The notes beneath the pieces were generated by a model. The model searched no databases. It saw only the letters and a list, made by a program, of their open reading frames with translations, and was not told the DNA's origin. The position numbers were made by a program, and so were the translations under genes. A stretch of DNA of 64,000 nucleotides from a virus, in IMG/VR virus record IMGVR_UViG_3300031758_000006; one strand, 5' to 3'. Positions 58,108-63,139 of this stretch are shown here, piece after piece. The first letter of the stretch is position 1; each line of letters opens with the position of its first letter.

Positions 58108-59337
58108 TTATATTGGGTTATTATATTTTAAGTAATTGTTTAAACCCACATTTAGATACGTATCACTGCCAACTATAATTGGATCGATAATATAATATGT
58201 GGATGTTGGGGTTACAGTTGGGGTTGGTGTTATAGTATTTGTTGGTGTTACGGTAGGTGTTACAGTTGGTGTTACAGTTGGTGTTATAGTATTTGTTGGT
58301 GTTACGGTAGGTGTATTTGTTGGTGTTACGGTAGGTGTATTTGTTGGTGTTACAGTTGGTGTTATAGTATTTGTTGGTGTTACAGTTGGTGTTACAGTTG
58401 GTGTTATGGTATTTGTTGGTGTTACAGTTGGTGTATTTGTTGGTGTTACAGTTGGTGTTACAGTTGGTGTTACAGTTGGTGTATTTGTTGGCGTTACAGT
58501 TGGTGTATTTGTTGGCGTTACAGTTGGTGTTACGGTAGGTGTATTTGTTGGTGTAGGTGATATTGGAAATATTTCCTCAATTTGCCAATTTAAATTTGAC
58601 GGGTCCGTAGTCACATCTGTAAATTGATCCACACGAGTTAAATTAGAGTAATCCTCACCCAGGTTAATTACTGTAGAACCAAAATTACTACCCTGTGATA
58701 TGGTAACACCGGTAGTTATTGTTATTGGTAAACCACTAAATACACCTAAATTGTGTGTAAAATTTAATGTGGTATCGATAATTACGGGTTTATTAGAAAA
58801 TAGATTATACGTTATGTTTACCGACCCGGGTAATACCGTAACCACCAATGTCAATTCCGTTGGTGTTTCGGGGTTTATAAAACAAAATTGAGTTGTTGTC
58901 GTTGTTATCACCGGGTTAGACGGTACACAACAAGGAAATTCCGAAACATAACATGAGTCGTACATCAAATCGTCAGAGATAAAACTATCCTGAACTGTTA
59001 TATATAATTTTTCCCTGATTGGTAATATTAAATTACCCTCATTTGTTTTTAATAAAAATTGTCCTTCATACCTACCAACACGATTTGTGTCTTTATTTGT
59101 GAACTGGTAATACACATAATATTCTGGACTAGCGTTTGGGTCTAACATTATTTTATTTACAAACCCAGCTGGTCTAGTTACTAACTTTGGTATCCCATTT
59201 TCAGTATCAATCATAGAGAAGAAAATGGACGATTCCTCAATAAGATCCATCATCTTATTGTAATCACTACGACCATCCTTCACTACTTGTAATTTTAAAA
59301 CCGGTAGTGTGGCATTTTTTTTAATGAAAAACTCCAT
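58108..59337 (-). CDS. BppU-like virion protein with a mucin-like Thr/Pro repeat
   Basis: N-terminal [14 protein letters not shown]...[17 protein letters not shown] resembles a BppU N-terminal domain; ~120-aa PTVT/PTNT repeat. Confidence 0.75.
58199..58560. repeat. Coding tandem repeat of 12-bp (PTVT/PTNT) and 18-bp (PTNTIT) units
   Basis: Near-perfect GGTGTTACAGTT / GGTGTATTTGTT iterations on the plus strand. Confidence 0.95.
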
Positions 59338-59364
59338 TTAATGTTTTTAATATAAATATATTAA

Positions 59365-61041
59365 TTAACATTCTTTTCTTAAATTTCCATCATAAAAATC
59401 AAATCGATTGTGTTCTGTTGGTGTTAACAACAACAATCCAGGTTTAATATTTCCCTTAATTGTTTCTTGATAGCAATTAGACATTAATGTCTGTTCGTAA
59501 GGATGTTTAAATTTTGTTTTTAAGTAACACTTATAATTACCCACTTTTGACATTAGAATAGGCCAATTTGATAGGTATATCTCCCCAGATACATATGGAA
59601 TACCACCATACGATTTTATGTGTTTAAATTCTAAATCAGGTGAGTTTGGGTCCAGTCCAATTAAAGGCAGTGATCTGTTGTTAGGCCAATGACTTTCTCT
59701 AAAATGTTGTGGTACATTATACCAAGACCATTGTTTATCGTGACTCCCAAAAAATTCGGTAAAGTTTAATTTTAAAAAATCAAACCCCTCTTTTTTTAGA
59801 ATTAATAATGATTTTTTAAATAAGTTTTTAACTTTTCTGTTAAACCCGTTTTTACATGTTTGATCAACACCATTATAAAAAAACATATCATCCTCAAAGA
59901 AATAGTAAAAGGATAGATCTTCTTGGTCATTAAAATGTTCAGATATAAACTGTCTACCACCAGTAATTCCGATGTTATCTTTTTTTATATGTTCAAAACC
60001 ATACATTTCACATAACCTAACATATTCATCCGTAGTCGTTAGATCGGTCGAGTTATTAAGTAGAAATTTTTTAGTACTAAAAATAAAATCAGAGTCATAC
60101 TCCAGTATGGACTCAATCAAGGTTTCGAATTGTTTTGGTGAATTAAAAGTGATGACATATAAACCCACAGAACCATTATCATTAGAATAGTCATTTGGTT
60201 CTTTTTTGTTCTTTGTTTTTAAAACTAAATTATTGTTTTTAACATCTTCAAAAAATTTATATAATAAACCATTACCCTCAATCTCGTAATAGTTTATCAC
60301 ATCCGGGTTATGGTATAACAATATAGTAAATAAACTTTCCTCAGTACCCATGAACCCCTCACTCAATGTTTGAGTTAAAATATTATAATATAATGTATTT
60401 AGTTCTGTTATCAACTCCTTATCCCCACCAAAAAATCCACCTCTAGCCACAATATTAGGGTTATCATTTGTCATCTCACACATTTTACTAAATGTAAATC
60501 CGTGTATTTCCGAGTTAGTTTCATATGGGAAACATATAAAATTAAATTTACTTAATTCACTATCTATTTTAGATAAAACTAAATCCTTTGTAAAATAACC
60601 TAAATGAATGGTATTTGTTATACCAGCGTCAATCCAAAATAATTTATCTGAATCAAATCTGTCTAAAATTTTTGCGTCATGTAATAAAAACATTTTAGAC
60701 ATTACTAATGGATTATACATCTCCAACTTAGCTTGTGTCGAATCAGATAACCATCCGACTTGATTATACCAATCGGGGTTGTTTCTAATCGTTTGGATTT
60801 TATCATAGTATTCATTGTTTTTAAACCAAGTAAGGTCTCTTAAAACAAATTGGGTGTTTTCCCTGGATCTATGTTTGAAAACAAACTCCATTAAATTTTC
60901 ATCACCAAAAATTATAAGATTACAATCAATGGTTAATAATTCCGTGAATTTTTCTAAATAATAATCAAATGACCTGGACCATCCTTCAGACATATCACCA
61001 CGACCAATATCCCACAATCCAGTAACTAAAGTTGTTTTCAT
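59365..61041 (-). CDS. Bifunctional glycosyltransferase: HtrL/YibB-like domain plus GT2-like domain
   Basis: TLVTGLWDIGRGD, YNPLVMSKMFLL, FWIDAG, RGGFFGG and GTEESLF; second domain LYVITFNSP...LLNNS...DNIGITGGRQ...FFEDD. Confidence 0.75.
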   Translation of the reverse strand: MKTTLVTGLWDIGRGDMSEGWSRSFDYYLEKFTELLTIDCNLIIFGDENLMEFVFKHRSRENTQFVLRDLTWFKNNEYYDKIQTIRNNPDWYNQVGWLSDSTQAKLEMYNPLVMSKMFLLHDAKILDRFDSDKLFWIDAGITNTIHLGYFTKDLVLSKIDSELSKFNFICFPYETNSEIHGFTFSKMCEMTNDNPNIVARGGFFGGDKELITELNTLYYNILTQTLSEGFMGTEESLFTILLYHNPDVINYYEIEGNGLLYKFFEDVKNNNLVLKTKNKKEPNDYSNDNGSVGLYVITFNSPKQFETLIESILEYDSDFIFSTKKFLLNNSTDLTTTDEYVRLCEMYGFEHIKKDNIGITGGRQFISEHFNDQEDLSFYYFFEDDMFFYNGVDQTCKNGFNRKVKNLFKKSLLILKKEGFDFLKLNFTEFFGSHDKQWSWYNVPQHFRESHWPNNRSLPLIGLDPNSPDLEFKHIKSYGGIPYVSGEIYLSNWPILMSKVGNYKCYLKTKFKHPYEQTLMSNCYQETIKGNIKPGLLLLTPTEHNRFDFYDGNLRKEC

Positions 61042-61886: not shown

Positions 61887-61891
61887 ATTTA

Positions 61892-63139
61892 TTATAAATT
61901 TCCTGTTATACGATCACACCAACCTTTTGATTTTGAGTATGGCCAAACAACCCAATAAGCCGGTTTTTCTTTAGTGTTAAATTGTCTCCATATTTTACAA
62001 TATCCGTCTGGATCAGTCATCATCATTTTTATCTCATCTGTACTAGCGTCTTGTCTATAGATTGTTTCATCTGTTTTATCGTGAAAAGCAACCACCCAAT
62101 ATTCGTAATCGTTTTCCGGTACCTGTAAAAAGGATACATCAATACAGTGTTTAAAAATTGATGAAAAACTCTCAACCCAATCCTCTTCGGTTTCAAAGTC
62201 GTATGGATTTGGTGGGTATTTCTTATCTATGGTGTATTTTTGTACAGCTCTTTTAGAGAATAAAACACCGGAATATTTTTCATAATCCTTAATTGTTCTT
62301 TCGGTACCAAAACCATATTTACCAAGGTCACCGTTATATACTTCACCATCCACACCTAATACCTCCCTGTTTTTTTTGTGTGAAGATTCATTTTTTAAGT
62401 ACCAAACTTTATCATCGTCCCATTGTTTTGTTCTACCTTTTCTGGTGTATTCGTGCCAAATAACAGTTTTATGGGGATGAAACAAATCATAACCGTGTGT
62501 ATAAGCTCTAACAGCTATAGAAATTTCCTCACCATGAAAGTAATATTCCGGGTCGTGTTGTACCTCAACACTAAATTGACCAAGAGTAAAACAAAAATGA
62601 GCTGAGTAAAATCTAGATGTTATCGGTTCGGTTAAATCTTTCCACCCAGGAATTGTCTCCGGTAAAAAGAAAACACAACCCTCTGGGGTGAACCGATCAA
62701 AAACCATCCTCCAAGGGTCAACAACCCGACCATCTGGATCGTTTTCTGGATCGAAAGATGATACATATCCGGTTAATAGGGGTTTTTTATATCCCTTATC
62801 CTGTAGATCAGATAACATATCTATTAATGTTTGATCCCAGTCTTGATCAAATCTCATGTGTGAATCAATCTGTAGTGTATATTCCTCACCACCGTACAGT
62901 TGTTGTACTTGATTACGAGCCCAACAAACACCTTTAGATTCCTCGTGTGGAATATTTAGAACTCTAAATCTTTTATCTTCTTCATAAGATGAAAGATCAT
63001 CAAATTTATCTTCTGGGTGGTATTGACGAGCGATACCAAATACTAAATTTTTAGGATGTTTTGATTTACTAATAGCGTCTTCTATTGTCGGGACTAATTG
63101 TGGATCCCTATATGAAGCGATTTGAATGAATATCTTCAT
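61892..63139 (-). CDS. GT60-like polypeptide GlcNAc-transferase (GlcNAc family, Gnt1/OGNT-like)
   Basis: IFIQIASYRD, KGVCWAR, LQIDSHMRF, YFHGEE, RAYTHGYD and IWHEY motifs. Confidence 0.85.
   Translation of the reverse strand: MKIFIQIASYRDPQLVPTIEDAISKSKHPKNLVFGIARQYHPEDKFDDLSSYEEDKRFRVLNIPHEESKGVCWARNQVQQLYGGEEYTLQIDSHMRFDQDWDQTLIDMLSDLQDKGYKKPLLTGYVSSFDPENDPDGRVVDPWRMVFDRFTPEGCVFFLPETIPGWKDLTEPITSRFYSAHFCFTLGQFSVEVQHDPEYYFHGEEISIAVRAYTHGYDLFHPHKTVIWHEYTRKGRTKQWDDDKVWYLKNESSHKKNREVLGVDGEVYNGDLGKYGFGTERTIKDYEKYSGVLFSKRAVQKYTIDKKYPPNPYDFETEEDWVESFSSIFKHCIDVSFLQVPENDYEYWVVAFHDKTDETIYRQDASTDEIKMMMTDPDGYCKIWRQFNTKEKPAYWVVWPYSKSKGWCDRITGNL

Follow-up and report, generated by a model that had tools for sequence, protein, structure and literature searches.

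Does a phage build mucin-like glycans on its own particles with enzymes encoded beside the proteins to be glycosylated? The question is raised by a stretch of 64,000 nucleotides from the IMG/VR virus record IMGVR_UViG_3300031758_000006 (hereafter, the window), in which three glycosyltransferase genes (59365-63139, minus strand) lie directly upstream of a gene for a 409-amino-acid (aa) protein with a long Thr/Pro repeat. The source, uncultured and of freshwater origin, is a large T4-like myovirus with 33% GC. From the comparative evidence below, we consider it likely that the cassette is a phage-encoded cytoplasmic system for mucin-type protein O-glycosylation of virion appendages. A preliminary description, made from the sequence without database searches, had noted three co-oriented, tightly packed transferase genes upstream of the 409-aa gene, and this arrangement was confirmed: consecutive genes of the minus strand, 0-37 bases apart, encode a 415-aa GT60-family glycosyltransferase, proteins of 281, 558, 409 and 205 aa, a 908-aa fibre and PolB.

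The product of the first gene (61892-63139, minus strand) is the proposed initiating polypeptide N-acetylglucosamine (GlcNAc)-transferase. Its earlier reading as GT60-like was borne out by a match to PF11397 ('GlcNAc', GT60) with E 2.3e-68 and 231.7 bits (cut-off 21), covering profile positions 97-349 plus an N-terminal stretch, and by a full-length match to phrog_24687 (E 4.6e-162); its relatives reached 206-218 bits against PF11397. An alignment of 54 phage homologues, including those of the Xanthomonas jumbo phage XacN1 and of phage RAS14, contained 110 invariant positions, among them the motif D92-S93-H94 (62858-62866), which, by analogy, would correspond to the metal-binding/catalytic Asp-x-His motif of GT-A enzymes. 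A conserved C-terminal region of ~120 aa extends beyond the Pfam domain. By family precedent, the enzyme would use UDP-GlcNAc as donor and transfer alpha-GlcNAc to Thr.

The third gene (59365-61041, minus strand) encodes a 558-aa transferase of two domains, which is the conserved partner of GT60. The preliminary description had taken it for a fusion of HtrL and GT2 domains, and the first half of this assignment stands: residues 2-256 (60274-61038) matched HtrL_YibB (PF09612) with E 2.3e-20 and 73.7 bits (cut-off 24.1). The protein stayed below the equivalog cut-offs for Escherichia coli YibB (79.7 versus 264.9 bits for TIGR02192, and 49.6 versus 342 for NF008462), and it is a distant member of the family, not YibB itself. 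The GT2 label did not hold, as the C-terminal domain (59368-60171) gave no Pfam match to GT2 (PF00535) at E up to 0.1. An AlphaFold 2 (AF2) model, with a mean predicted local distance difference test score (pLDDT) of 89, contained two GT-A-type (Rossmann-type) domains, and the top Foldseek matches were the two-domain transferases LH3, K4CP (chondroitin polymerase), Mimivirus R699, LARGE1 and COLGALT1, with E from 1e-9 to 2e-12 for the first four. The C-terminal domain also has an E-D-D motif that is invariant among homologues, and the model places it in the GT-A fold, with no family assigned. Sequence searches of the PDB with the 415-aa and 558-aa proteins returned nothing.

Between these two lies the gene for the 281-aa protein (61041-61886, minus strand), a variable member of the cassette with a single HtrL/YibB-like domain. 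The earlier HtrL/YibB-like reading was upheld at the level of profiles, although searches of Pfam and NCBIfam gave no direct match: the profile of its family aligned with the HtrL-like N-terminal domain of the 558-aa protein with an hhalign probability of 97.7% (E 1.6e-12, 223 columns), and both share the motifs W-x-D-A-G and G-G-F-F-G-G.

A sequence scan found no hydrophobic or membrane segment in any of the three enzymes, indicating that they are soluble. In the mechanism that we propose, the GT60 enzyme would move a first N-acetylhexosamine onto Thr residues in Thr-Pro tracts of phage proteins in the host cytoplasm, and the two-domain HtrL/GT-A enzyme would lengthen the chain, as would the extra HtrL-like 281-aa enzyme in the source phage; in relatives, as many as ten other transferases and sugar methyltransferases may contribute to the chain. 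The glycosylated proteins would then enter the particle, among them the 409-aa protein, which bears the 128-aa stalk, and possibly a loop of the tail sheath and proteins encoded outside the window. The donor sugar, the acceptor residue, the order of the enzymes and the benefit of the cassette (shielding, stalk stiffening, protease resistance or adhesion) are what we infer from the genes and their families.

The 409-aa protein (58108-59337, minus strand) consists of an N-terminal beta-sandwich (residues 1-123; 58969-59337), the candidate anchor domain and the only part conserved across relatives, a second, immunoglobulin (Ig)-like beta-sandwich (residues 157-258; 58564-58869; pLDDT 81-93 in the AF2 model), found in a subset of relatives only, the Thr/Pro repeat (residues 259-386; 58180-58563) and a 23-aa tail (58111-58179). 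It had been described as a BppU-like virion protein, a likeness that the fold suggests but that the sequence does not show. A VIA structure search with residues 1-120 returned phage baseplate chains (80alpha, TP901-1) as its top four matches (Z 8.0-8.4); the N-terminal domain of TP901-1 ORF48 (BppU; 3uh8) aligned over 95 residues with Z 8.0 and a root-mean-square deviation of 2.9, just above generic Ig-like folds, which came next at Z 7.5. Pfam, PHROG, PDB-profile and phage tblastn searches with residues 1-258 were all without a match, and any likeness of the N-terminal region to BppU-N would lie in the fold only. A Foldseek search with the whole model gave only tandem-Ig (single-chain antibody fragment, scFv) matches with a TM-score of 0.2, and is uninformative because the model has two domains.

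The repeat is the proposed O-glycan acceptor stalk. It was announced as ~120 aa of nearly pure Thr/Pro; its length is 128 aa, but its purity is lower, at 70% Thr/Pro, with 60 Thr, 30 Pro, 16 Val, 10 Asn and 7 Ile residues (47% Thr, 23% Pro). The units are T-P-T-V and T-P-T-N, in which set positions are taken by Val, Asn or Ile, and the DNA is made of imperfect 12/24-base repeats. The only other strong Thr/Pro tract in the window is a loop in an insertion of the 1111-aa tail sheath (44491-44550, minus strand), with a Thr/Pro fraction of 0.80 over 20 residues, which may be a second acceptor. A Thr/Pro tract also occurs in a 1107-aa open reading frame (ORF) of the related phage G003, which is similar in size to the sheath of the window.

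IMG/VR contains many relatives of the source phage, several of them of 250-320 kb, and over 7000 close GT60 homologues were counted in metagenomes. We compared 80 GT60 loci of related phages, to which the locus counts given here refer. Their gene order is GT60, 0 to ~10 variable genes, the two-domain enzyme, the N-terminal domain of the 409-aa protein, fibres in some loci, and PolB. The two-domain enzyme was present in 75 of the 80 loci and the 281-aa gene in only 28, and residues 1-137 of the 409-aa protein were kept in 64, in many relatives as a stand-alone protein of 126-138 aa. The cassette belongs to the core of the clade: it was found between fibre genes and PolB in nearly every PolB-anchored relative with enough upstream sequence, and a single PolB locus (L143) lacked it within 10 kb. 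The genes upstream of GT60 in relatives are of fibre type (Peptidase_S74, Laminin_G_3, Gly_rich_2, DUF285). The variable genes encode GT25, GT10 fucosyltransferase-like, GT7/GT2-like and RXYLT1-like transferases, as well as FkbM- and CmcI-type methyltransferases, additions that fit a variable, exposed glycan. Relatives further contain homologues of the autotransporter O-heptosyltransferases (BAHT, Aah/TibC), with 304 and 284 bits against TIGR04414 (cut-off 200); one directly adjoins GT60 in G004, those of G003 and G001 are no more than 6 kb away from it, and a BAHT gene occurs within 10 kb in 17/80 loci. Two loci carry multi-enzymes of 911-972 aa beside GT60, that join a BAHT-type heptosyltransferase with methyltransferase, GT1 and GT9-like domains in one chain (L071, 7300-10035; L020, 3457-6375 (-)).

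This repertoire also admits a different reading, namely that the cassette builds or alters a lipooligosaccharide, capsule or other surface glycan of the host, serving superinfection exclusion or the release of progeny from debris, with the Thr-Pro tract as a flexible linker. HtrL is found in lipooligosaccharide outer-core loci (PMC10327509), the GT25, GT9, GT10 and GT8-type enzymes of relatives are of families typical of lipooligosaccharide and lipopolysaccharide synthesis, and cyanophage HtrL-like genes sit in nucleotide-sugar clusters; Iyer et al. interpreted these, and jumbo-phage glycosyltransferase clusters, as systems for modifying capsular polysaccharide (PMC7824862). However, the characterised GT60 members act on polypeptides, the neighbouring BAHT enzymes are specific for proteins, and the cassette contains no lipid-carrier transferase, flippase, polymerase or membrane protein. 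Remodelling of the envelope would also leave unexplained the adjacency of GT60 and Thr-Pro genes in bacteria, described below, and we regard it as unlikely.

If the cassette glycosylates Thr-Pro tracts, as we propose, genomes with GT60 should be those that encode such tracts, and the preliminary description had suggested this co-occurrence as a check. We searched genomes with a DNA pattern encoding T-P-T-x-T-P-T and, as a control, with the reversed pattern. The GT60-carrying phages G003, G001, G002, XacN1 and RAS14 yielded 35, 31, 120, 51 and 22 matches, respectively, with 0-2 for the reversed controls, whereas four phages of 174-244 kb with HtrL-like genes but without GT60 yielded none. The association was thus found in phages (22-120 versus 0) and, as shown below, in several bacterial phyla. 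The best match of PolB among cultured phages was to Salinibacter phages, at 23%; because PolB finds no close cultured relative, the phages without GT60 are not close relatives of those with it. Taken alone, the co-occurrence in phages is only suggestive. In G003 (97% complete), the homologue of the 409-aa protein is short, yet seven ORFs contain Thr-Pro tracts; two of them have SprB repeats and weak matches to Hoc-like head-decoration proteins, and one has a papain-type peptidase domain. Separately, the closest GT60 matches in assemblies labelled as bacterial (L201-L208) were phage-like contigs of 33-39% GC, one of them of 230 kb, mostly in metagenome-assembled genomes (MAGs) of Saprospiraceae. 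The binning of these MAGs and the SprB repeats in relatives give a weak hint of a Bacteroidota host of the Saprospiraceae type.

A scan of bacterial genomes with a single GT60 protein gave no match, and an alignment-based scan of species-representative genomes retrieved full-length GT60 homologues with 35-67% identity. GT60 and the two-domain enzyme were paired, at the native GC content, in Lewinellaceae, Cytophagales, Gemmatimonadota, Verrucomicrobiota and Halieaceae, as well as in Saprospiraceae and Desulfobacterota, for at least five bacterial phyla overall. An ORF of 198-326 aa with a Thr-Pro repeat was the immediate neighbour in at least 10 bacterial GT60 loci, and such neighbours of the pair occurred in at least five phyla. 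The gene beside GT60 accounted for all five of the TPTxTPT matches in the 4.5-Mb genome of Jiulongibacter sediminis, where its product has 262 aa, for 12 of 18 in a Congregibacter MAG (4.2 Mb), for 25 of 31 in a Verrucomicrobia MAG (6.8 Mb) and for 4 of 9 in a Gemmatimonadaceae MAG (3.8 Mb). This bacterial co-occurrence is independent of the phage data and stronger than they are. Judged by eye, several of the bacterial Thr-Pro proteins beside GT60 (L216, L238, L236, L239, L246, L205) have twin-arginine-like N-termini, which suggest export after glycosylation in the cytoplasm; the Pfam model TAT_signal did not match them. The Thr-Pro proteins of Halieaceae end in a hydrophobic stretch and a basic tail. 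In two Gemmatimonadaceae loci (L215 and L220, ~3980-9300), the Thr-Pro protein has a PqqD-like peptide-recognition domain at its N-terminus and is preceded by a fusion of an NTP_transf_5 nucleotidyltransferase with an HtrL-like domain, an arrangement that looks like peptide modification of the kind seen with ribosomally synthesized and post-translationally modified peptides (RiPP-like).

The motif TATTTAT occurs 10-30 bases 5' of the start codon in ~14 genes of the window, mostly for tail and baseplate proteins (for example, at 13328, 15689, 37578, 41010, 42013, 45442, 57454 and 59352); it is enriched by position only, not overall, and probably serves this group of phages as a promoter element. 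The 409-aa gene has one copy, a candidate late-type element, 14 bases ahead of its start (59352-59358, minus strand), and another (57454-57460, minus strand) precedes the 908-aa fibre gene. As TATTTAT is also found 5' of the DnaB-like gene, late timing of the genes behind it can be presumed but not read directly from the motif. The T4 late promoter TATAAATA was not enriched in the window.

The transferase genes lack this late-type motif, as might be expected if the enzymes glycosylated proteins other than those of the virion, such as exported Thr-Pro-repeat proteins of the host (receptors or adhesins) or non-structural phage proteins. Such targets would also agree with the small Thr-Pro proteins with twin-arginine-like N-termini that pair with GT60 in bacteria, and with the presence of GT60 modules in Bacteroidota, the likely host phylum. 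On the other hand, Thr-Pro proteins are numerous in the phage genomes themselves, Hoc-like/SprB-repeat and BppU-N-like ones among them, fibre genes surround the cassette, and XacN1 virions stain for glycoprotein. We therefore hold non-virion targets to be improbable as the purpose of the cassette, though still worth naming beside virion glycosylation.

The position of the cassette beside PolB, and near PolB and RNase H in XacN1, brings up DNA as a substrate: the transferases could glycosylate hydroxylated pyrimidines, as in T-even phages and in the GT-A/GT-B systems of metagenomes, and variable arrays of several glycosyltransferases are known for DNA glycans (bioRxiv 10.1101/2023.12.21.572611). 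The known routes to glycosylated pyrimidines depend on either a divergent ThyA homologue or a Tet/JBP dioxygenase. Three complete relatives encode one ThyA homologue each; two of the three score above an NCBIfam equivalog cut-off for thymidylate synthase and retain P-C-H as well as P-F-N, the latter of dUMP type, and the third lies ~4 bits below the cut-off of its best model, its specificity motif not being found by the pattern used. A Tet/JBP dioxygenase was not matched in relatives, in a search without a positive control. Moreover, GT60 is not among the described types of DNA transferase, and XacN1 DNA is cut by BssHII, NaeI and SpeI (PMC5852040), at restriction sites that contain C. Hypermodification of DNA by this cassette is thus very improbable.

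Several observations weigh against virion glycosylation as we propose it. In the closest relative, L059, GT60 is retained and the 409-aa homologue shares 82% identity over residues 1-257, but the Thr/Pro tract is missing, and it is likewise absent from the 409-aa homologue in many further relatives that keep GT60; because of these absences, the tract would be one acceptor among several and not a dedicated substrate. The XacN1 and RAS14 cassettes have no adjoining Thr/Pro gene either. The virion location of the 409-aa protein is presumed from a fold match with Z ~8, TATTTAT precedes structural genes but not the transferase genes, and the HtrL, GT25, GT9 and GT10 families are typical of lipooligosaccharide synthesis (PMC10327509). 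Thr-Pro linkers are also widespread in the absence of any GT60, the phage comparison covers only about two independent GT60 lineages, and a glycan on phage proteins of this clade is a prediction from genes. Weighed together, virion O-glycosylation, the reading already offered in the preliminary description, is supported by the co-occurrence, the soluble enzymes, the setting in a fibre module and the XacN1 data, while the role of the 409-aa tract as dedicated acceptor is not.

A broader proposal goes beyond the phage, and we advance it tentatively, with somewhat less than even confidence. A module of three parts, a Thr-Pro-repeat acceptor, a soluble GT60 initiator and a two-domain HtrL/GT-A elongator, may constitute a so far undescribed cytoplasmic mucin-type pathway. 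It would be common to at least five bacterial phyla, whose acceptors with twin-arginine-like signals would be exported in glycosylated form, to abundant freshwater jumbo phages and to XacN1-type phages, where it would furnish fibres, appendages of the baseplate and head decorations with a glycan that varies between strains. The PolB of the source phage had no match in XacN1-type phages at E 1e-20. To judge from the sequences, the GT60/two-domain module appears to have been exchanged between jumbo-phage lineages that are far apart, or acquired from bacteria.

Around the cassette, the window encodes baseplate J, gp25, a tail tube, the 1111-aa sheath, gp32, a RecA/UvsX-like protein, a DnaB-like helicase, ribonucleotide reductase and PolB, and no tRNA genes; a megablast search of positions 51000-64000 found no match in cultured phages. 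The expectation of fibre genes downstream of the 409-aa gene was correct for the 908-aa protein (54715-57441, minus strand), which has Gly/Ser/Asn repeats of the YadA/UspA1-head type, matches UspA1 (PDB 3pr7) with E 2.7e-14 and falls with Atlas clusters that carry YadA_head, all of them viral. The 205-aa protein (57478-58095, minus strand) had no family match in Pfam and PHROG searches; its N-terminus resembles fibre-type proteins of relatives, with residues 1-45 matching the N-termini of proteins of 680-970 aa at the equivalent position. Upstream of GT60, positions 63374-64000 (minus strand) encode the C-terminal part of a Ser/Gly-rich fibre-like protein, recognized from its translation, that continues beyond the edge of the window and was without a family match in Pfam and PHROG searches.

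Four further genes of the window deserve mention. A 216-aa GT2-type transferase (23003-23653, minus strand; PF00535, E 7e-6) is encoded between the RecA/UvsX-like and gp32 genes, and its sequence contains the run D-D-D-D and, further on, the motif E-D-N; if the phage modifies its DNA or another replication-linked substrate with sugar, this protein is more likely to be responsible than the GT60 cassette. The gene at 20851-21987 (minus strand), flanked by those for the 5'-3' exonuclease and the RecA-like protein, matches the Druantia defence protein DruA (PF14236, E 7e-13). A Fe/Mn superoxide dismutase with both Pfam domains and an N-terminal extension of ~160 aa is encoded at 49095-50192 (plus strand), preceded by TATTTAT. 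The 231-aa protein adjoining gp32 (24679-25374, minus strand) has a Pro-rich segment, P/A/G/V-rich in composition, at about residues 56-75.

Glycosylated phage particles have been documented in only a few cases. If virion O-glycosylation by this cassette is correct, very abundant freshwater jumbo phages build mucin-like glycan stalks on their appendages with their own enzymes, and these stalks would bear on host recognition, on resistance to proteases and grazers, on the stickiness of particles and on antigenicity. The enzyme pair beside bacterial Thr-Pro proteins would extend mucin-type initiation by GT60 from protists to prokaryotes, and the bacterial module would point to an export route for pre-glycosylated proteins. 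Cultured carriers of the system exist in phages XacN1 and RAS14 and in Jiulongibacter sediminis JN14-9.

The enzymes of GT60 (PF11397) include the polypeptide alpha-GlcNAc-transferases of Dictyostelium. A characterised member from Trypanosoma cruzi, TcOGNT1, makes GlcNAc-alpha-1-O-Thr on mucin-like proteins (PMC9472816), and a comparable P-T-V-T-P-T tract occurs in T. cruzi gp72 (PMC3630849). The phage enzyme is of the same family, and the acceptor type of that family, Thr in Thr/Pro-rich mucin-like stretches, is encoded beside it. It differs from the protist mucin enzymes, which are Golgi membrane proteins, in that it is soluble and would act in the bacterial cytoplasm, and it has the additional ~120-aa C-terminal region outside the Pfam domain.

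Among phages, XacN1 encodes homologues of both core enzymes (ORF334 and ORF330, with 48% and 39% identity) in a cassette located between baseplate/giant-protein genes and PolB. At least two proteins of its virions are periodic acid-Schiff (PAS/Schiff)-positive, and Yoshikawa et al. proposed in 2018 that its transferases make these virion glycoproteins (PMC5852040). XacN1 and the source phage are alike in both core enzymes, and XacN1 has many TPTxTPT tracts; of the two, it is XacN1 for which PAS-positive proteins are known, and its cassette, unlike that of the source phage, has a carbamoyltransferase and no adjoining Thr/Pro gene. The claim of novelty in the preliminary description therefore needs narrowing: virion glycosylation by phage transferases of this kind had been proposed before, but our search of the literature on GT60/PF11397 in phages or bacteria found no description of a pairing of GT60 with Thr-Pro proteins. 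We found no earlier account of the lead enzyme as a GT60, of Thr-Pro tracts as the logic of acceptor choice, of the conserved two-domain enzyme that accompanies it or of a counterpart in bacteria.

In mycobacteriophages, phage-encoded transferases modify structural proteins of the same phage while these are in the cytoplasm, at extensions of the C-terminus (Freeman et al. 2023, as summarised in PMC12619734). The targets named in that summary are capsid and tail-tube subunits, and the enzymes are not reported there as GT60; in our case, they would be baseplate-type, decoration and fibre proteins. In contrast to mycobacteriophage virion glycosylation, the GT60 system is shared with Gram-negative bacteria.

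In the serine-rich-repeat adhesins of Gram-positive cocci, GtfA/GtfB prime the protein with GlcNAc, and further enzymes follow, including a two-domain transferase. The resemblance lies in cytoplasmic GlcNAc priming on a repeat of hydroxy amino acids, followed by stepwise extension by soluble enzymes and then by export or assembly. The two systems differ in the initiating enzymes, whose families are unrelated (GT-B for GtfA/B versus GT-A for GT60), and in the repeats (Ser-rich versus Thr-Pro), and the accessory Sec system is absent here. Chlorovirus PBCV-1 differs in that its capsid glycans are N-linked, and the AAH/TibC systems of autotransporters in that they add heptose to Ser, with enzyme families distinct from those of the cassette; the latter are nevertheless connected to it through the BAHT homologues beside GT60 in relatives, none of which lies within the window. 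In both, soluble enzymes encoded by the virus or by the cell glycosylate surface proteins in the cytoplasm, as we propose for this phage.

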